A DNA stretch of 64,000 nt, taken from NCBI RefSeq assembly GCF_055900595.2, contig NZ_CM148325.1; one strand, given 5' to 3'. The first letter of the stretch is position 1; each line of letters opens with the position of its first letter. The translations under genes were made by a program, and so were the position numbers. The notes beneath the pieces were generated by a model, which worked only from the letters and a program-made list of their open reading frames with translations, searched no databases and had not been told where the DNA came from. Below are positions 25,609-36,208 of the stretch, in pieces.

Positions 25609-25685
25609 TGGACCGCCACCGGGGACTCGAACCTCGCACACTCAACTTAAAGGGTTGACGCTCTTTCCTGATGAGCTAGTGGCGG
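25609..25685 (-). tRNA. tRNA, identity uncertain (anticodon loop CCUUUAA)
   Basis: Acceptor CCGCCAC/GTGGCGG, D-arm GCTC..GAGC, anticodon stem TCAAC/GTTGA, T-loop TTCGAGT, 3' CCA encoded; position 33 is C rather than U. Confidence 0.65.
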
Positions 25686-25687
25686 TT

Positions 25688-25762
25688 GGTGGCCCTTGCT
25701 GGATTTGAACCAGCGACCTGGCGATTATGAGTCGCTCGCTCTCACCACTGAGCTAAAGGGCC
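25688..25762 (-). tRNA. ileZ: tRNA-Ile2 (CAU anticodon; ileX/ileZ-like)
   Basis: Reverse complement GGCCCTTTAGCTCAGTGGTGAGAGCGAGCGACTCATAATCGCCAGGTCGCTGGTTCAAATCCAGCAAGGGCCACCA is a near-match to E. coli ileX; T-arm GCTGG-TTCAAAT-CCAGC. Confidence 0.85.
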
Positions 25763-25880
25763 GGGCGCAGGATAATAACGTTACGAAATCAATGTTGCAA
25801 GCATTCAAAAATCACCTGGTTAAAAATCACCCTTAGCTCCTCCACCAGCGCATTCACCATGTCTATCCGAGATAAGTGGC

Positions 25881-25908
25881 ACAAAAAAACCCGCTTGTGG
25901 GCGGGTTT
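25881..25908 (-). terminator. tR'-like intrinsic terminator downstream of late promoter
   Basis: Minus strand AACCCGCCCACAAGCGGGTT hairpin followed by a T-run. Confidence 0.75.
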
Positions 25909-25952
25909 TGTTTGCTTTTGCCATCACGTACAAAATCGGCAAAATATCAGAT

Positions 25953-25989
25953 TTGCATGAAATATATGCCTTTCAATCTACTTTTGCAA
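25953..25989 (-). promoter_or_regulatory. late promoter pR'-like (sigma70)
   Basis: Minus strand TTGCAA (-35; 25984-25989), 17-bp spacer, TATATT (-10; 25961-25966), just downstream of Q. Confidence 0.6.
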
Positions 25990-26668
25990 CACTTTGCTTT
26001 GAAAATGCCGCCTTTTGTTTTGAACGTGTTCTCATTACAAACAATAAAGCCTCACTATCCAGTCGTTGAAAAATGTGTTTCATTGCAACCCAGTGACGAG
26101 TAAATGTTTTGGACCAGTTTTTAGTTGTCACTCCCGCCAGTAATGCCAGCTCCTGGTATTCATAACCTTCCCCACCAAAAAGTTCTGCTTTTACTGCCTG
26201 CGCCGCCAGCCAGATTAATTTTTTCAGGCGTTCCTGCGTTTTCCCTGCAATTTTTCTGGTACCTGATTGAGTATTAAATTCATTCCACGCCCACTGTGTT
26301 ATCGCGATCTGATATTCCCAACAAATACTCCCGCTGTAACTCCACAACAACCAGGCTTTATGATGTTCTTCAAGAGACAGAACAGCCCGCCGCCACGATG
26401 ATGTCGAAAACTCAACCGGGCTGACCAGGGCAATTGATGAGCCTTTCGCCAGTGATTGTTTTCCCGGGATTGGTGGATTATCCCGCGTAATCATTTTTCC
26501 GGTCACTTCATCTCGGTACCGGATTTTTTTACGCCTGTAACGCCCTGTATCGAACATGGCATTCTCCTGCCAGGCTTCAAGCTGACCTTTTGTTGCCCCA
26601 CTCAAATCAGCGGTGGCGATAATGAGCTCCTCACGCACAAACTGTAAATACTGGTTATTCATGCGCAC
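25973..26668 (-). CDS. Q: late antiterminator Q-like protein
   Basis: 231-aa ORF immediately upstream of pR'/tR' and downstream of rusA; canonical Q position. Confidence 0.7.
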   Translation of the reverse strand: MRMNNQYLQFVREELIIATADLSGATKGQLEAWQENAMFDTGRYRRKKIRYRDEVTGKMITRDNPPIPGKQSLAKGSSIALVSPVEFSTSSWRRAVLSLEEHHKAWLLWSYSGSICWEYQIAITQWAWNEFNTQSGTRKIAGKTQERLKKLIWLAAQAVKAELFGGEGYEYQELALLAGVTTKNWSKTFTRHWVAMKHIFQRLDSEALLFVMRTRSKQKAAFSKQSVAKVD

Positions 26669-27024
26669 TCCAGTTCTGTGATTTTTATCCCCAGCCGCCC
26701 ACCAGGAACGAGCTGACCGCGCACAATATTGATTTCATCAAACTGCTCGTCGTCTATGATAAGTCCGGCATGCGTCAGCGCATCCAGTGGTGCTTTCAGG
26801 ATATTGTCCAAGTCACGACGGCGCTTATCCGGTGGCTCTGCAATAATCTTTATCGCCAGCCTTCCGGACAGGTTTAATTTCAGCCGCTGCTGGCGAACAA
26901 TTAGCGCCACATCACGGCGATAACGCTTTCCGGCCTCCGAGATGAAATACGTATTGCCATGACGTCGCCAGTAGGTATTCACCGTCGGCGGGTAAGGCAA
27001 AACAAATTCTATGCGTTCAGTCAT
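26659..27024 (-). CDS. rusA: Holliday junction resolvase RusA
   Basis: 121-aa ORF; motif PDKRRRDLDNILKAPLDALTHAG and C-terminal GGRLGIKITE match RusA. Confidence 0.9.
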   Translation of the reverse strand: MTERIEFVLPYPPTVNTYWRRHGNTYFISEAGKRYRRDVALIVRQQRLKLNLSGRLAIKIIAEPPDKRRRDLDNILKAPLDALTHAGLIIDDEQFDEINIVRGQLVPGGRLGIKITELECA

Positions 27025-28083
27025 TCATGCTTTCCACTTCAGGACACCCGAATTTCTCGCGTGCATTAAAAAACGAATCAGCAACAACAGCTGGCTGCCG
27101 TGTTTTTCTTCAAAATCTTTTACCCCGGCGTGCAGTTCGTTATGACATTTACGGCACAGCGGAATAACAAACAAATCATCAGCCTTTGTTCCCATCCCTC
27201 CCAGTCCATGATCAATGATGTGATGCGGATCATCTGCCTGATTACCGCACGTCATGCATTTCTGCGTTTTTACCCAGCGCGTGTATACAGGCATCTCTTC
27301 CCGTTGTGGTTTCTTGCGCTGGAGATATTGGGCCGGAGAATCCGGATCCACGACAATGCTGACCACCGTCTTTTCCTGTGGTGGGTTCTGTTGATGGTGA
27401 GCGTGAGGTGGTAGCGCAATATTTTTTGTGCGCTGCTTCAGTATGCTGGTGGCGGTCTGCTCTCCCGGTATGATGTCGCTTTCGCGGCACACCGAGCGGA
27501 TTTTTTCCGCACGTAACCCCAGCGAACGACGTAATACTGCCTCCGGAAGCGCGTCCGCCACCTGATTGCAGACCGCCCACCAGGACAATTCTGCCAGCGA
27601 TAATTCCCGCTCCTGCGTGCCATTCATTGCATGGCGTATGACGTCAATCATCCATGCTGACAGGTTTTGACAGGCAAGTTGCCCGAGTGATTCGGATGTC
27701 TGGTCACGCAGCTGGTTGTCGCAGTGCCAGCACAACACCATTGCGCCTGCACCATAACGATGTATAACGATTTCACTATGGTGATAATCGCCGTGTGGCC
27801 ACTGGCAGGATTTAACATTGCGTAACAGCCAGTCAGACAGCGCACCAGCACCACCAGCAGCACGAATCACCCGTTCGTTACTGAAAAATGGCAGTAATGA
27901 GTTATCTTCCGCCAGCGGCTGGCGGACTGCAGGAACGACCCCGGACGGCAGATTACGCATGCTTTTCGGTTCCGGCTCCACCAGTACACGCCCCTGCATA
28001 AACAAAGGCATCGCATCAGGACCGGGCCTGAAAAGTACAATCCCCAGACGGTGAGCAATTTCAGGAGTCACTAATACCCTCAC
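27025..28083 (-). CDS. DUF968-like protein with C-terminal HNH/zinc-ribbon-like motif
   Basis: ORF 27025..28179; likely GTG start at 28083 after GGAGG RBS; C-terminus CMTCGNQADDPHHIIDHG...CRKCHNELHAG. Confidence 0.6.
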   Translation of the reverse strand: MRVLVTPEIAHRLGIVLFRPGPDAMPLFMQGRVLVEPEPKSMRNLPSGVVPAVRQPLAEDNSLLPFFSNERVIRAAGGAGALSDWLLRNVKSCQWPHGDYHHSEIVIHRYGAGAMVLCWHCDNQLRDQTSESLGQLACQNLSAWMIDVIRHAMNGTQERELSLAELSWWAVCNQVADALPEAVLRRSLGLRAEKIRSVCRESDIIPGEQTATSILKQRTKNIALPPHAHHQQNPPQEKTVVSIVVDPDSPAQYLQRKKPQREEMPVYTRWVKTQKCMTCGNQADDPHHIIDHGLGGMGTKADDLFVIPLCRKCHNELHAGVKDFEEKHGSQLLLLIRFLMHARNSGVLKWKA

Positions 28084-28084
28084 G

Positions 28085-28363
28085 TTACCTCCAGATCCGT
28101 TGCTGGTACGTGCGGGATGGACGCGGTGGGCGTTCGGAATAAGGGAGCCTGACGGAGATGATCCAGTACAGGCGGTCAAGGCTTAGGTCTTTCTGAAACT
28201 CGTAACCACGTCTGCGGTAGTTCTGAATTAGCCACTCTGCCTGTTCTTCAGTACATGGATCATGCCGGAACCAGTCAGATTTGAATGCGTGTGAATACTG
28301 CCCGTGCGTGCAGGCAAGAACGGGCGAATTATCAGAATTGTAATATTTTACGTTGCGTGCCAT
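28085..28363 (-). CDS. hypothetical nin-region protein
   Basis: 92-aa ORF; stop abuts the next start (TAACGTG). Confidence 0.5.
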   Translation of the reverse strand: MARNVKYYNSDNSPVLACTHGQYSHAFKSDWFRHDPCTEEQAEWLIQNYRRRGYEFQKDLSLDRLYWIISVRLPYSERPPRPSRTYQQRIWR

Positions 28364-28507
28364 CGGTTTTCTCCGGTGGCACGGTGTTACTCAGCGGGAG
28401 TTCAGCCCCGCGCAAGATTGTAGATGAGTTTATTCTTCTGAAAAAGCAGAAAAGCCAGCTTTTATTCCGATCTCTTTCAATGCCTGTAATGAAGTGACAA
28501 ACTCACC

Positions 28508-28680
28508 TTAGCGCAAGATAAATCCGTCCGTCACTCGGGCATCCACAAAATTAATTAACGCAGCCCCATTTTTTTGCAAACACACAATGCGGTAATGACT
28601 AACAATATTTCCATTTTCAACGCACACAGCATAGAGGCCATCTTCACAAAAAATTTTACGCAGTTCTTCGATGTTCATCA
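28508..28680 (-). CDS. hypothetical small protein (57 aa)
   Basis: Hand-translated: MMNIEELRKIFCEDGLYAVCVENGNIVSHYRIVCLQKNGAALINFVDARVTDGFILR; below the ORF-track size cutoff. Confidence 0.4.
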
Positions 28681-28795
28681 TCAGAATCCTTCCGGATAAT
28701 TAGCTCTCCCCTTTAAGGGACCATCCCTCTTATCCCTGCGCGCTACTTAAGTATTTTTGATTCTATTCCGGCACCGTCCAGAACTTCAAACGTGT

Positions 28796-28829
28796 TAAAA
28801 ATAAAAACAAAAACCCGCCGAAGCGGGTT
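28796..28829 (-). terminator. intrinsic terminator downstream of hok
   Basis: AACCCGCTTCGGCGGGTT hairpin followed by T-rich run on the minus strand. Confidence 0.75.
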
Positions 28830-28897
28830 AAGTGTGGGTGCATTGAGGATGCCTGACTCATCAGAGGTGGCGAGGGATTTCTCCCTCGCCTGGTCTC

Positions 28898-29053
28898 TTA
28901 CTCCTCAGGTTCGTAAGCTGTGAAGACAGCGACCTCCGTCTGGCCGGTTCGGATTCGTACCTCGCAGAGGTCTTTCCTCGTTACCAGTGCCGTCACAATG
29001 ACGGTAATACAGATGACGATCAGGGCGACTAACATCGCCTTTTGCTGCTTCAT
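28898..29053 (-). CDS. hok: Hok/Gef-family type I toxin (in-frame upstream extension to 29110 is mok-like)
   Basis: MKQQKAMLVALIVICITVIVTALVTRKDLCEVRIRTGQTEVAVFTAYEPEE resembles Hok (single TM, conserved C...EVA.F.AYE); inverted repeat GGCGAGGGATTTCTCCCTCGCC in the 3' region. Confidence 0.85.
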   Translation of the reverse strand: MKQQKAMLVALIVICITVIVTALVTRKDLCEVRIRTGQTEVAVFTAYEPEE

Positions 29054-29264
29054 AGCCTGCTTCTCCTTGCCTTTCGGCACGTAAGAGGCTAACCTAGATT
29101 TGCCGTTCATAGATTGAGCCTCAGATTAATGTTAAGCGTCTTGCCGGACGCGTAATGTTAACTGGGGCTTTTCTCTATCTGCCTTTTGGGGTTCATGCCT
29201 GAGACAGATAGCCTCAAGCACCCGCTGCAATTCTACTTAACTCTCCTTTTCCCGCAAACCGTTT

Positions 29265-29348
29265 TTATCCCCAGCGGCAAATCGAATACACCACCAGCGC
29301 CACCGCCATCGCAATTCCTACCGTTGTGAATGCTTCAGGCCAGCTCAT
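29265..29348 (-). CDS. small hydrophobic peptide (27 aa), start overlaps upstream stop (TAATG)
   Basis: Hand-translated: MSWPEAFTTVGIAMAVALVVYSICRWG; single predicted TM helix. Confidence 0.3.
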   Translation of the reverse strand: MSWPEAFTTVGIAMAVALVVYSICRWG

Positions 29349-29608
29349 TATCTCACCTCCAGTCTCCATACCGCCTGACCAATCCGGCTGGCATGGGTAT
29401 CTTTGGATACTGTTCCGTCTTTAGCCATCTCCATAAGAATTTTGCGCAAATCTGCCGAACGCCATTCTTCATCAGGAAATTCCTTCTCCATTGCCAACCG
29501 CAGATTCCAGGTTGCCATCCTGAATGGATATTCCCCGCCGAGAGCTTTATCTTGCAGGGCAGCCCGGGAACGCATCACCTGCAAAACCTTCTCTTTTACA
29601 TTCATCAT
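29348..29608 (-). CDS. hypothetical phage protein
   Basis: 86-aa ORF in a co-directional gene string. Confidence 0.5.
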   Translation of the reverse strand: MMNVKEKVLQVMRSRAALQDKALGGEYPFRMATWNLRLAMEKEFPDEEWRSADLRKILMEMAKDGTVSKDTHASRIGQAVWRLEVR

Positions 29609-30285
29609 TTCGCCTCCTGCGGCGGTTCTGGTATCGGCATCCAGTGGGTTACTTTCGATGCCGGTTCTTCCCCATCGTCAGTAACTGCCCACCATTTGTT
29701 TCTCGACCAATCGTAATACCCTTCGAAGGTATTGCACTCAGTCCAGCCGTAAGACTTACCCCAACACCAAACATACTGTTTATCGTTCGGCATTCGCTCA
29801 CTACAGCTTATCCAACTATCCGGAGTTACCGGAGAGTTGCCACCGGGAATATTTTCCGGAATATTTTGTTGTGCGTTTTGTGGTTGTTCGTATTTACCAT
29901 GAAGCATGGCGGCGCGGCAGGCGTTCCAGCCAGCTGTTCGCCCAAGCGCGTAAACTTCAGATGGCTCAAGATAATCAATGTCATGCCCGTCCTCATCGTC
30001 GTTCTCAGGTAATGCAGCAGGTACTACCGGTACTGGCGGAGCGGCGTAGACTTCAATAATCCCATTATCAATAGGCCATTCTCCATCCTTGAGATAGTCA
30101 CTTGTGCCGTCAACTTGCTGTTCAGCAATGTGGAATGCACCAACTGGCTCTGCCTCAAGCGAGGCCAGCGCAATCCGCGCCAGTTCTTCCGCTTCTTCTG
30201 CTGGCAGTACAACGTTGCTACCAGGTCCGTATGTTTCGCGCCACTGTTTGATTGTCAGCAGTCGCTCTTTGGTTATAGTGGTCAT
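29605..30285 (-). CDS. DUF551-like phage protein
   Basis: 226-aa ORF; Trp/Cys-rich C-terminus ending THWMPIPEPP. Confidence 0.55.
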   Translation of the reverse strand: MTTITKERLLTIKQWRETYGPGSNVVLPAEEAEELARIALASLEAEPVGAFHIAEQQVDGTSDYLKDGEWPIDNGIIEVYAAPPVPVVPAALPENDDEDGHDIDYLEPSEVYALGRTAGWNACRAAMLHGKYEQPQNAQQNIPENIPGGNSPVTPDSWISCSERMPNDKQYVWCWGKSYGWTECNTFEGYYDWSRNKWWAVTDDGEEPASKVTHWMPIPEPPQEAK

Positions 30286-30491
30286 TTATTAATCCTCAAA
30301 ACTTTATGCCCGGGTGCAAAAGCACGCGTTTTGTCTTTGCTTATTCGCCAGCCATCCTTACGCGCCTCTTTTGCACAGCCAGTCCATGACGTACCGATAT
30401 ATTCACCGAAGTCTGGCGTTTGATATTTACCATTTGTACACTGGCGACAATCACAATAGAGATGCATGGTGTAACTTGCGGCAATAGCCAT
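30282..30491 (-). CDS. hypothetical Cys-rich small protein
   Basis: 69-aa ORF; CDCRQCTNGK...C motif. Confidence 0.45.
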   Translation of the reverse strand: MAIAASYTMHLYCDCRQCTNGKYQTPDFGEYIGTSWTGCAKEARKDGWRISKDKTRAFAPGHKVLRINK

Positions 30492-30492
30492 A

Positions 30493-30852
30493 TCAGTCTC
30501 CTTTGATGCCAGTGTTTACAACCTGACAAGCCTCTTTGAGCACCCAGTCAACAGCGTCTTGCCATGCTCCGGTTTCGACTGGCGGATTCTCACGCTTAAC
30601 CTGTTCATAGAAGCGCACTGCTTTAATCAATCCTTCTGGTGTCAGTGGCGCAGGCGGTGCAGTGAATAACGCCTGAATTTCATAGTTCGGCCTGTCGTTG
30701 CAATCCTCTTTTGTCGGTACATATTTCCAGTCACCAACCCACATCTTCTCCTGAAAGTCCGTAACGCCTTTTTTCACGTAGCGATATCGCCATGCAACTG
30801 GTTTTGCCTGCCCTGCCGTTTCATGCCCTTCCTGATAATTAATCTCGCTCAT
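30493..30852 (-). CDS. hypothetical phage protein
   Basis: 119-aa ORF in the co-directional gene string. Confidence 0.5.
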   Translation of the reverse strand: MSEINYQEGHETAGQAKPVAWRYRYVKKGVTDFQEKMWVGDWKYVPTKEDCNDRPNYEIQALFTAPPAPLTPEGLIKAVRFYEQVKRENPPVETGAWQDAVDWVLKEACQVVNTGIKGD

Positions 30853-31017
30853 TCATCACCCCACTCATCACAATATGCTTCGACCGGATTTTTTCCTGCT
30901 TCATAATCATCACGCCATGCTTCAGCATCAGCAGCACTGCCACCACGTAACTCTGCATAGTCCATTAACAGTTCATGCCATTCTTCAAAACTGACGTTGT
31001 ATTTAGTTGAACCAAAA

Positions 31018-31200
31018 TCAGCCATTTTGCTCTTCCTCTTCGTCTTTTATTTCGTGATATGAGTAATTGCAGTAGTTAAAGAAAATTTCTTTTGCTTCGT
31101 CATGAATTTCATCAGGTGTTGCGTCATCGTCCACTTCGAATACATCCTCAAAATCTCCACCAGCTATTCCAGTTTCAATAATTATTTTGAACTTTCGCAT
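31018..31200 (-). CDS. hypothetical acidic small protein
   Basis: 60-aa ORF, highly acidic. Confidence 0.4.
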   Translation of the reverse strand: MRKFKIIIETGIAGGDFEDVFEVDDDATPDEIHDEAKEIFFNYCNYSYHEIKDEEEEQNG

Positions 31201-31293
31201 TTCACTACCGCCCTTTCGGGTGGCCTCCTGCTGTTCTGAAGGTGCAGAAATCCCTCCGGTTAAGGATTAAATTTTTAACAGTGCTAAATTTAA

Positions 31294-31650
31294 TTATTCA
31301 GTTCTGGATTTTGTCACCCTGCGTATCCGCGCTTTCGCGTTACGCTCAATCTGAATTAGCTTTTCTATATTTTTTCGCCTTTCCCGTTCCTCCTGGCGCA
31401 AGAGCCTTACATCATCTGCCAGTCTGGTTTCTCTTTTCGCCACAGAGAGCATCCAGTCAAATGGCTCCACAACTGCACCGCAGATTTTACAGCGGACCTG
31501 ACGCTCTTTTTCGTCAACGCGGACAGAGGCGTGATGACAATATGGTCTTTCCGATGGCTCATAAAGAAAATTAACCTGATTACGTGGGTCATCCTCTTTT
31601 ACCGGAAATAAAACAATATTACTTAACTCATCTTCTGGTTTTATTTCCAT
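31294..31650 (-). CDS. hypothetical protein with putative zinc-binding motif
   Basis: 118-aa ORF; CHH...CKIC; basic C-terminus. Confidence 0.5.
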   Translation of the reverse strand: MEIKPEDELSNIVLFPVKEDDPRNQVNFLYEPSERPYCHHASVRVDEKERQVRCKICGAVVEPFDWMLSVAKRETRLADDVRLLRQEERERRKNIEKLIQIERNAKARIRRVTKSRTE

Positions 31651-31703
31651 GCTCCTCTCCTTTGATGCGAATGCCAGCGATAATTGAAGCCTGATAGCTA
31701 ATT

Positions 31704-32159
31704 TTACTCACAGCCCCCCTGATAATTTCCCTGATAAAACGCCAGCACGCGCTGCATAACTTCGCTCTTCCTGCACTCGCAACAGATTATGTTCTGACGC
31801 CTGTCGTAGCGGCGTATTTCTCCGTCTGGTAATGACCAGATAAGGTCAGGATCAACCACAACCGGTTTTTTCACCTTTTCCCTTGATAGTTTTTTGCGGG
31901 CGTTTTGCCAGTCTTTACGCGCCTGCTCAGACGGGAATAATCCGTAGCCTGAATTGTATACATCACCACTGGCAACCAGCTCTCTGGCAAGAACGCTCAG
32001 CAGATATCTTGTCGCACCTGTTTTCGCTTCCAGTTGTCGTAACGTCTCGCGCCCGCTCTGTCGCACGAGTTCGACAACCTGCCTCTTAATTTTTTCCCGC
32101 TCTTCCTGTGTAAATACTTTTTTCACAAGTCCTCCTGAAAAATCTCCTTCACAATTCAT
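31704..32159 (-). CDS. hypothetical phage protein (ren/nin position)
   Basis: 151-aa ORF directly downstream of the P-like gene. Confidence 0.5.
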   Translation of the reverse strand: MNCEGDFSGGLVKKVFTQEEREKIKRQVVELVRQSGRETLRQLEAKTGATRYLLSVLARELVASGDVYNSGYGLFPSEQARKDWQNARKKLSREKVKKPVVVDPDLIWSLPDGEIRRYDRRQNIICCECRKSEVMQRVLAFYQGNYQGGCE

Positions 32160-32821
32160 ACAAAACCAGCCGCTTTCCGGCGTTCATACTCCTGTTTCAG
32201 CAACTCAATTGGCGTTGGTCCCGACGGGCGTTTGGGGGCAGCCAGTTGTCGCCGGACTGGCGGAACGCTGAGGCCCATACCAACATGCTTTGACCATTTC
32301 GTCAGTTGCCGTTCTGCAAACCGTTTTAACTCCCCTTCGGTCATCTGGCGTTCAATCCCCTTTGAACGCATCTCGAGGCATATGTGATACAGCACAGGCT
32401 GAGACCACGGGTATTTATCGCTTCCGTCGTATCGCCAGGACTCATTGCGCCAGCGTCGGTACTCCTCCATCACAGCCCCCACCGTCAGACCGAATGGATT
32501 GGCCCCGCTTTCCGGAATCAGTGCCACAAACTCAGCCAGGTCAGGAGGCCATGTTTCACCCGCCCGGCAGCGGTCCATGCACTGGCGGCAGACCTGCCGG
32601 ATTTGCTGCTCAGTCATCGCGCCAATCTGTGCAATCCAGAGCTTCGAAGGTGCGGCCCCGTTCTTCCGGGTCCAGCGGTCCGAATAAACCTCCCCCATGA
32701 GTTCCCACAGCTTCCAGGCTGTTTCCGTCGCTGATAAATCCGTTTTCACGTTCCCACTGCTCACGTGCTGCCCGAATTTCCTGAACTGCCCGTGATGCGG
32801 TGCCACCTGGTGCTGCTGCAT
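32156..32821 (-). CDS. P: replication protein P-like (helicase loader)
   Basis: Segments AMTEQQIRQVCRQC...WPPDLAEFVALI and DKYPWSQP align with lambda P; position after O. Confidence 0.75.
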   Translation of the reverse strand: MQQHQVAPHHGQFRKFGQHVSSGNVKTDLSATETAWKLWELMGEVYSDRWTRKNGAAPSKLWIAQIGAMTEQQIRQVCRQCMDRCRAGETWPPDLAEFVALIPESGANPFGLTVGAVMEEYRRWRNESWRYDGSDKYPWSQPVLYHICLEMRSKGIERQMTEGELKRFAERQLTKWSKHVGMGLSVPPVRRQLAAPKRPSGPTPIELLKQEYERRKAAGFV

Positions 32822-35420: not shown

Positions 35421-36208
35421 CAGACCCCTCAGAGGATACCACCTCGCCTGACGTGGTTAAAAGCAGGCACACAACACGAAAGCGCACGGCGAGGTAGCTG
35501 GTTCATATATAGCCTGTCGTTAAATTTTCGTCGACCGTGCGCTTCCGGTTGTGGCACTCCGCGAAATGGCGCGGCGGTAAGCATGGCGGGGTTCCCTTCC
35601 CCTTGAGGACACCGGGTTGTCAGGTTGACCATGCGCCTGAGTGACAACCCCGCTGCAACGCCCTCTGTTATCAATTTTCTGGTGACGTTTGGCGGTATCA
35701 GTTTTACTCCGTGACTGCTCTGCCGCCCTTTTTAAAGTGAATTTTGTGATGTGGTGAATGCGGCTCAGCGCACGCGGAACAGTTAAAACCAAAAACAGAG
35801 TTATGGGTGGATTCTCTGTATCCGGCGTTAATTGTTAACTGGTTAACGTCACCTGGAGGCACCTGGCACCGCATCAACAAAGTTCACTTCGGTGATGAAA
35901 GGTAAGAGAAAATGTTGAATGTAGCTATTGAAAACCAGTACGGGTGGAATTATAGTGCACCTGCACCTCATAAAACGGGTGCCGGGCGTGGAAACCCGAA
36001 AGTTACTCGAGCGCATAACCGCGCCGAAGCGGTTTTTTTATGCGTAATGCACAGCCACATTCAGATAATGGTGGGGCGTGCAGGGCAGCTGCAAGGCTGG
36101 CCGGGTTCTCGAGTGACCGGTATTTCCACCCCTGTACGTCTCGCCACCCTTATGGTCGTGGAAAGCCTCGGTGGTGAGTTAATTAACTTAACACTTGAGG
36201 ATGCCATC

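Follow-up and report, generated by a model that had tools for sequence, protein, structure and literature searches.

A predicted hok/mok/sok toxin-antitoxin locus and an adjacent, probably independent 27-codon early gene in the nin region of a Qin-like prophage

The window analysed here is a 64,000-nucleotide stretch of contig NZ_CM148325.1 (assembly GCF_055900595.2), and the locus under study occupies its positions 28,796 to 29,348. To place this locus within its host element we aligned the window with an annotated prophage of E. coli GF4, to which it is 99.67% identical over 6.9 kb (window 32620..25690). The genes around the locus are as follows, with positions taken from the mapped GF4 annotation unless another source is given.

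32617-32156, minus strand: P
32126-31704, minus strand: DUF977 gene
between the DUF977 and DUF551 genes, minus strand: several small genes
30285-29605, minus strand: DUF551 gene
29348..29608, minus strand: early gene of 86 aa, phrog_2814 (ORF list, GF4 annotation and PHROG)
29348-29265, minus strand: 27-codon ORF, absent from the GF4 annotation (ORF list)
29053-28898, minus strand: hokD
28681-28430, minus strand: rem, a pseudogene
28083-27025, minus strand: DUF968 gene
27024-26659, minus strand: RusA gene
26662-25973, minus strand: Q

The gene order hokD-rem-ydfU-Q is common to this prophage and to Qin of E. coli K-12 and, judged by its sequence, the host element is a Qin-like lambdoid prophage of E. 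coli. A reading of the window made from its sequence only, before any database search, had assigned the locus to the nin region. This assignment is borne out, as hok lies between P and Q with all of the genes on the minus strand.

The same sequence-only reading proposed a Hok/Gef-type type I toxin locus, with a hok gene at 28898..29053 that has an in-frame upstream extension to 29110. The ORF list contains both frames as described, and Pfam, PHROG, Rfam and homology to phage 933W all support the assignment to the Hok/Gef class. The features of the hok locus, each with the evidence by which it was placed, are these.

28898..29053, minus strand: hok toxin gene of the HokD/HokW type, 51 aa (Pfam, PHROG, identical NCBI protein)
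28898..29110, minus strand: mok frame, beginning 19 codons 5' of hok and in frame with it, 70 aa (ORF list, 933W layout)
29230..29258, minus strand: putative hok promoter, with -35 TTTGCG at 29258-29253, 17 nt, and -10 TAGAAT at 29235-29230 (sequence reading, homology)
28805..29223, minus strand: predicted full-length hok mRNA of ~418 nt (Rfam RF01794, whole-transcript fold)
29212..29223, minus strand: tac, the 5' end of the hok mRNA, GGGUGCUUGAGG (pairing with fbi in the minimum-energy fold)
28836..28848, minus strand: fbi (fold-back inhibition) element, CCUCAAUGCACCC (pairing with tac)
28802..28829, minus strand: intrinsic terminator of hok, with a 7-bp stem at 28829-28812 containing 5 GC pairs, then the T tract TTTTTGTTTTT (terminator scan)
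29102..29172, plus strand: Sok, predicted at 71 nt, with a 14-nt single-stranded 5' tail, a long hairpin and a U tail (alignment with the sokW misc_RNA of 933W)
29067..29095, plus strand: putative Sok promoter, with -35 TTGCCT at 29067-29072, a 17-nt spacer, and -10 TAACCT at 29090-29095 (identity with 933W/Sp5)

The 70-aa product of the mok frame matched the Pfam family HOK_GEF (PF01848) over the full 42-position model (E 1.7e-23), as well as phrog_251, 'MokW-like host killing' (E 7e-33); the NCBIfam Hok models gave the window Hok 48.6 bits, under their curated cut-off of 73. The 51-aa Hok, which retains both cysteines, is identical to a protein that NCBI names HokD, and the exact 70-aa mok product is present in public collections as a Hok-family protein. 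The ATG of mok lies at 29110, with GAGG 8 nt 5' of it.

With regard to the hok transcript, neither its promoter nor that of Sok was picked up by a generic scan, and both were assigned by homology; the hok promoter element is kept in other hok loci regardless of the sequence upstream of it. We placed the transcript start at ~29223 from the promoter spacing and from position 1 of the Rfam model, which aligns at 29223. An Rfam scan, which the sequence-only reading had suggested as a check, matched the full model of RF01794 ('sok') at 29223..29048 with 112.4 bits, where the gathering score is 59. As it is the hok-sense strand that matches, and the final bases of the model align to the hok Shine-Dalgarno (SD) sequence and AUG, the match marks the hok leader and not the strand that gives rise to Sok. 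When the 418-nt transcript was folded, the fold-back repeat that had been noticed in the 3' region of hok proved to be a tac-fbi pairing, which in the minimum-energy structure consists of 12 bp interrupted by one bulge. This fold has a z-score of -6.4, and none of 100 shuffled sequences was as stable. When the 3' end of the hok mRNA was removed, the tac region was predicted to go into a local 5' hairpin. Among 84 distinct homologous hok transcripts, in which the tac sequence was fixed by the search pattern, fbi is kept in 75; changes in its arm are compatible with G-U pairing, and free variation is confined to the bulged base. The strong terminator that had been described after hok was likewise confirmed, by its GC-rich stem and T tract.

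The antisense RNA had been expected on the plus strand near 29050-29150. The strand is as expected, and the position can be refined, with the predicted RNA at 29102..29172, a span that corresponds base by base to the annotated sokW of 933W, and its putative promoter at 29067-29095. The predicted Sok is complementary to the SD sequence and start codon of mok, and it folds with an energy of -29.9 kcal/mol (z -4.9). Its promoter sequence is identical in the window and in 933W/Sp5, where the -10 of the sokW promoter is the element that was mutated, with primer YO-421, in the 'pro-less' construct (PMC8621323).

Directly upstream of the hok promoter lies the 27-codon ORF.

29265..29348, minus strand: 27-codon ORF encoding the hydrophobic peptide MSWPEAFTTVGIAMAVALVVYSICRWG (ORF list, tblastn homologues)
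29356..29360, minus strand: GGAGG, resembling an SD sequence, 7 nt 5' of the ATG of the small ORF and within the last codons of the upstream gene (sequence reading)

The sequence-only reading had described both this ORF and its TAATG overlap with the preceding gene, and both are present: the ATG of the small ORF and the TAA stop of the 86-aa gene have one A in common. Several lines of evidence suggest that the ORF is a gene. Searches with tblastn recovered homologues in 94 phage records and in 181 plasmid records, the latter mainly IncY P1-like phage-plasmids of ~95 kb. Every intact copy that we observed is 27 codons long, and similarity stops at the ORF's own start and stop codons. Among the copies there are 34 different flanks on the upstream side and 33 on the downstream side. 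Conservation of the ORF, which the sequence-only reading had named as a point on which its proposal could fail, thus extends across unrelated flanks. In 54 of 58 distinct contexts the small-ORF start overlaps, as ATGA/TAATG, the very end of a long upstream ORF, overlaps being counted only where such an ORF terminates at the junction; an SD-like 4-mer precedes the small ORF in 67 of 72. The SD sequence and the stop-start overlap are kept together behind at least four unrelated upstream genes. Codon 2 may be T, S, N or I, but its first base is always A, and the overlapping upstream stop is thereby preserved. We found no conserved in-frame start upstream of the small ORF.

The pattern of substitutions also points to a protein-coding sequence. 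Homologues with 38 distinct DNA sequences encode only seven peptides, and in this set, which was chosen by protein similarity, pN/pS is 0.13 in frame as opposed to 1.9 and 2.5 in the other two frames. The excess of synonymous changes is inflated because most of the homologues were collected by protein similarity. Divergent pairs of copies have dN/dS values of 0.09-0.6, and copies that differ by as much as 35% in their DNA retain both the frame and the length of 27 codons. In a set chosen by the hok leader sequence alone, 30 of 31 copies of the small ORF are intact and pN/pS is 0.42, with the disruptive variants V20E and R25S and one probable frameshift among them; in phage POCJ13 a copy has a stop at codon 3. 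We detected no signal of RNA structure in the ORF (z +1.06). Taken from these patterns in the DNA, the 27-codon ORF is a genuine small gene that would be translated by coupling in early operons. Its product has an acidic N-terminus, one hydrophobic helix (best 17-residue Kyte-Doolittle mean 2.1) and the C-terminus RWG, a composition from which it is probably a single-pass membrane helix with its N-terminus out and its C-terminus in.

We also considered whether the peptide might be part of a larger protein, through fusion or frameshifting with DUF551, as clusters at 90% group it with DUF551 proteins of 121 and 185 aa. These proteins end in ...PPQEVNQ and do not contain the peptide, which makes the grouping a clustering artefact, and there is no slippery site at the junction.

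The small gene is widespread and seldom annotated. Its DNA is present in 1358 of 5426 complete E. coli genomes (~25%), in up to five copies per genome and roughly 1,900 copies by DNA alone. When 100,044 genomes were scanned at species level with a degenerate pattern for the 27 codons, the only matches were an Escherichia sp., a 369-nt contig labelled Acinetobacter, which is probably contamination, and one chance match in Planctomycetota; as far as so strict a pattern can show, the family seems to be restricted to phages that infect Escherichia and its close relatives. At the site of the small gene, PGAP and most phage records have a gap of 82-84 nt or a spurious ORF on the opposite strand, and the exact 27-aa sequence appears in a few submissions, under the name 'hypothetical protein' or 'bacteriophage protein'. 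Common gene callers have a 90-nt minimum, and it is because the ORF, at 84 nt, falls below this length that it is mostly unannotated. No family in PHROG, NCBIfam or PADLOC covers the peptide; a marginal match to phrog_4612 (E 0.02) was treated as hydrophobic noise. The peptide sequence is not printed in the literature that we searched, and it is absent from the supplements of the Sakai small-gene study and of 'The Cryptic Bacterial Microproteome'.

Much of this distribution is separate from that of hok. The small ORF has no hok beside it in three settings: in virulent Avunavirus phages its neighbours are ea-type genes, in Stx1 and further lambdoid phages it is followed after a few genes by xis and int, and in IncY phage-plasmids it comes after a DUF551 gene. 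Conversely, of 120 hok loci that were sampled through their leader, only 31 have the small ORF upstream, and in other hok loci the shared hok sequence starts directly past the position of the small-ORF stop, which places a mosaic joint there. The insert of the hokW-sokW plasmid of Takada et al. starts 6 nt before the small-ORF ATG (primer YO-432), and the hokW-sokW deletion of the same authors left the small ORF intact (PMC8621323). On the strength of these sequence comparisons, the small ORF is a separate mosaic unit and no part of the hok/sok module.

The closest relative of the locus with experimental data is hokW-mokW-sokW of 933W/Sp5 (AF125520), which shares 92% DNA identity with the window over the small ORF, both promoters, the leader, hok and fbi, and which likewise has an in-frame mok, a 71-nt Sok span and a 27-codon ORF directly upstream. 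The two loci differ in position, the window locus being in the nin region, from P to Q, while that of 933W is at the opposite end of the record, by L0139-L0141. They also differ at 6 of 51 residues of Hok and at several bases in the first mok codons and the Sok 5' tail, and beyond fbi, terminator included, their sequences are unrelated. In hokD (relF) of K-12 Qin, 49 of 51 Hok residues are identical to those of the window, and rem, ydfU/DUF968 and Q are downstream in both; however, in Qin relBE takes the place of everything 5' of the hok SD sequence, leaving no mok start, Sok or tac, whereas the window copy is complete. The hok/sok system of plasmid R1 and mokC/hokC (gef) have the same parts as the window, namely a Hok-family toxin, an overlapping mok, a cis-antisense Sok over the mok initiation region, tac-fbi and a terminator, although the R1 module is on a plasmid and that of the window in a prophage. 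In R1 the mok frame differs from the hok frame, whereas in the window mok is in frame with hok, as in the 'Gef + leader' type named in the 933W annotation. HokW is 44% identical to R1 Hok, is toxic and localises to the inner membrane; sokW RNA was detected by northern blotting, has its own promoter and neutralises HokW, in part dependent on RNase III and Hfq (PMC8621323). In addition, a recent survey found prophages to be enriched in hok (bioRxiv 10.1101/2025.08.07.668861).

These comparisons bear on whether the window locus still works. Work of Pedersen and Gerdes from 1999 is said to have found the chromosomal hok loci of K-12 inactivated, and the window locus might be a decayed, non-functional relic of the same kind. 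The loss of mok, Sok and the leader from Qin hokD lends this view some weight, as does the state of rem, just downstream in the window prophage, as a pseudogene. Yet in the window every regulatory part is intact; the parts are essentially identical to those of the functional Sp5/933W locus, save for the N-terminus of mok and the 5' tail of Sok; Hok has both cysteines and the full Pfam domain; and tac and fbi still pair. We therefore consider decay very improbable here.

The small ORF invites two further explanations, one of which denies it a product while the other makes that product a toxin. That the ORF is untranslated, its conservation reflecting a DNA or RNA element such as an upstream part of the hok promoter or a recombination hotspot, could be argued from the distance of 6 nt between its stop and the hok -35, from the modest pN/pS of the hok-adjacent copies and from its omission by PGAP and most phage annotations. 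The last of these is accounted for by the length threshold of the gene callers, and the boundaries of conservation are the exact start and stop codons, the ORF persists where no hok follows, its frame and length survive the divergence described above, pN/pS exceeds 1 in the other two frames, the SD sequence and stop-start overlap recur behind unrelated upstream genes, and a signal of RNA structure is absent. Such an element is in our view highly improbable. The sequence-only reading had instead likened the peptide to small membrane toxins, and one may imagine a second such toxin, type I-like or holin-like, functionally tied to hok. The peptide is indeed short and hydrophobic, of a size with TisB, DinQ and ShoB; a constant 41 nt separates the ORF from the start of the hok mRNA in the 31 of 120 hok loci that have it, and where a 2.5-kb flank existed hok is often found downstream within that distance. 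Small single-pass membrane peptides occur among type I toxins (TisB, DinQ, ShoB, Ibs) as well as among regulatory microproteins (AcrZ, MgtS, KdpF); the 27-aa peptide is like all of these in its size and single hydrophobic helix but has sequence similarity or a family match to none. A promoter scan found no promoter-like site for the ORF on either strand, and Rfam gave no RNA family match opposite it; the ORF has no promoter or long structured leader of its own, and no antisense promoter or RNA of a toxin-type locus was detected. Unlike the architecture of type I toxins, its start overlaps the upstream stop, as in operon coupling, the phage-borne gene is joined to the hok module exactly at its stop codon, several phage types carry it without hok, and no toxin family in PADLOC, PHROG or NCBIfam matches it. 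The plasmid pBAD18-hokW-sokW, which includes the small ORF, caused no growth defect on arabinose (PMC8621323), evidence that is weak because the native SD sequence of the ORF was left out. The proposal of a toxin acting with hok did not hold up against the operon-coupled start, the lack of a promoter of its own or a detectable antisense partner and the occurrence without hok; nothing so far marks the peptide as a toxin, the toxin reading is unsupported, and we think a functional tie to hok very unlikely.

The interpretation that we favour is that the locus very probably consists of two adjacent, independent units of the nin region, a complete hok/mok/sok toxin-antitoxin system of the hokD/hokW lineage and a coupled 27-codon early gene that is not a partner of Hok. 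What the window itself offers is sequence elements, folds and homology, and the regulatory steps set out here are inferred from the R1 model and the hokW-sokW experiments. By analogy, a stable hok mRNA of ~418 nt would be made from a weak promoter and would be held inert by the tac-fbi pairing, until slow trimming of its 3' end allowed it to refold. Hok would then be translated only when ribosomes translate the overlapping mok. The unstable 71-nt Sok would pair over the mok SD sequence and start codon, block translation and send the duplex to RNase III; were Sok lost, Hok would enter the inner membrane and the cell would be killed or lysed.

A terminator scan of the locus found no terminator between the early genes and hok. 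As hok is co-oriented with the pR-to-Q operon and no terminator precedes it, early transcription would be expected to read into hok and against the Sok promoter. Treatment with mitomycin C led to loss of sokW RNA, after which HokW was seen, in a RecA-dependent manner (PMC8621323), and early read-through following induction would, as we suggest, explain both of these events. The 27-codon gene, for its part, would be translated by coupling to the preceding early gene to give a peptide with one predicted transmembrane helix. This peptide would be a widespread phage accessory microprotein, most likely one that acts on the host membrane or on a host membrane protein in early lytic growth. A bolder version appears to us rather unlikely: here the peptide would be a translated membrane microprotein of the early phage genes, with a role directed specifically at the host, and would represent a family that lambdoid, P1-like and rV5-like coliphages have in common but that Pfam, PHROG and NCBIfam do not contain; its frequent placement flush with the hok promoter would be functional, and at induction read-through would act as a switch, removing Sok and so allowing Hok to be made.

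The hok/sok part of the locus is already known, being another intact prophage copy of a textbook system of which a close homologue has been tested at the bench; Sok is now delimited and its locus confirmed to lie in the nin region. Only the small gene and the read-through idea are worth following up. The small gene is nearly always missed by annotation; roughly one complete E. coli genome in four has it, as do phages of three unrelated lifestyles, which makes it an inexpensive, well-defined candidate for work on microproteins. The co-orientation of hok within the pR-to-Q operon, in turn, offers a simple and testable account of how Sok is lost and Hok gained on prophage induction. In Sp5, deletion of the hokW-sokW locus halved phage release (Takada et al. 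2021, PMC8621323).

Although it is named 'sok antitoxin', the Rfam model RF01794 (157 positions) matched the hok-sense strand, at window positions 29048..29223 on the minus strand, and the 3' end of the match coincides with the Shine-Dalgarno sequence and AUG of hok. RF01794 is therefore a model of the hok mRNA leader rather than of the predicted 71-nt Sok transcript, which lies on the opposite strand. A strand assignment based on this model would thus mislabel Sok.

A comparison of 84 distinct homologous hok transcripts showed the leader to be most variable at 29094..29113, with a mean entropy of 0.91 versus 0.1-0.4 nearby. This stretch comprises the first codons of mok and, at the same time, the 5' tail and start of Sok, and it contains most of the differences between the window and the Stx2 phage 933W. 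The E. coli genomes that matched a 931-nt query comprising the hok locus and its upstream flank did so at 1-11 places each (median 2). Variability at the first mok codons and the Sok 5' tail could prevent cross-talk between co-resident hok/sok copies.

In hokB, a tyrosine codon is recoded to cysteine through TadA-mediated A-to-I editing at a TACG site. Editing of this kind also recodes tyrosine to cysteine in hokC, hokD and hokE (bioRxiv 10.1101/2025.08.07.668861). Codon 47 of the window's hok (28912..28915, minus strand) is TAC followed by G (UUACGAA), so that, judged by sequence, Tyr47 is in a TACG context of the same kind as the edited sites. Editing of Tyr47 to cysteine would supply the second cysteine of the disulfide.

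Directly downstream of hok lies rem (28430..28681, minus strand), which the annotation of the 99.67% identical prophage of E. coli GF4 gives as a pseudogene interrupted by an internal stop; the sole part of rem still open is a 57-codon ORF (28508..28681). Rfam searches placed the following RNA genes in the window:

35677-35728, plus strand, DicF
35963-36039, plus strand, isrK
36064-36151, plus strand, C4 antisense RNA
within 25612..25762, minus strand, two tRNA genes directly downstream of the antiterminator gene Q

Because these occur together with the gene order hokD-rem-DUF968-Q, the prophage is of the Qin/dicB type. In a local search, the hok 3' UTR and terminator (28808..28889, minus strand) also gave an isrK match, which was sub-threshold (26 bits, where the gathering threshold is 50; E 0.0014) and most likely reflects a common hairpin/terminator shape, not homology.

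Varied small hydrophobic ORFs often precede the hok promoter at other hok loci (the homologous loci L088, L114, L089, L161 and relatives):

59-aa two-helix protein with C-terminal CIEYWR
34-aa peptide beginning MSDDISLAMEGALAV
68-aa relative with C-terminal LMEHLSD (similar tails read LMDRLSD)
108-aa membrane protein, phrog_3772

They may reflect no more than a general richness of these phage regions in small membrane genes.

In the Shigella phage POCJ13 copy of the window's 27-codon small gene (L213:901-984), codon 3 is TAG, versus TGG in other copies. The POCJ13 record has an opposite-strand ORF, gp73, annotated there in its place, probably spuriously. A 369-nt contig filed as Acinetobacter idrijaensis (JQCU01000559.1) carries a DUF551 3' end typical of E. 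coli phage and then the small gene (MSWPEAFTTVGIVMAAALGLYSICRWW), whose presence there is probably contamination of that assembly. Finally, protein clusters at 90% identity group the 27-aa peptide with DUF551 proteins of 121 and 185 aa, in which the peptide sequence is absent. This grouping arises artefactually when sequences as short as these are clustered, and as a result the name 'DUF551 domain-containing protein, partial' is wrongly given to some entries.
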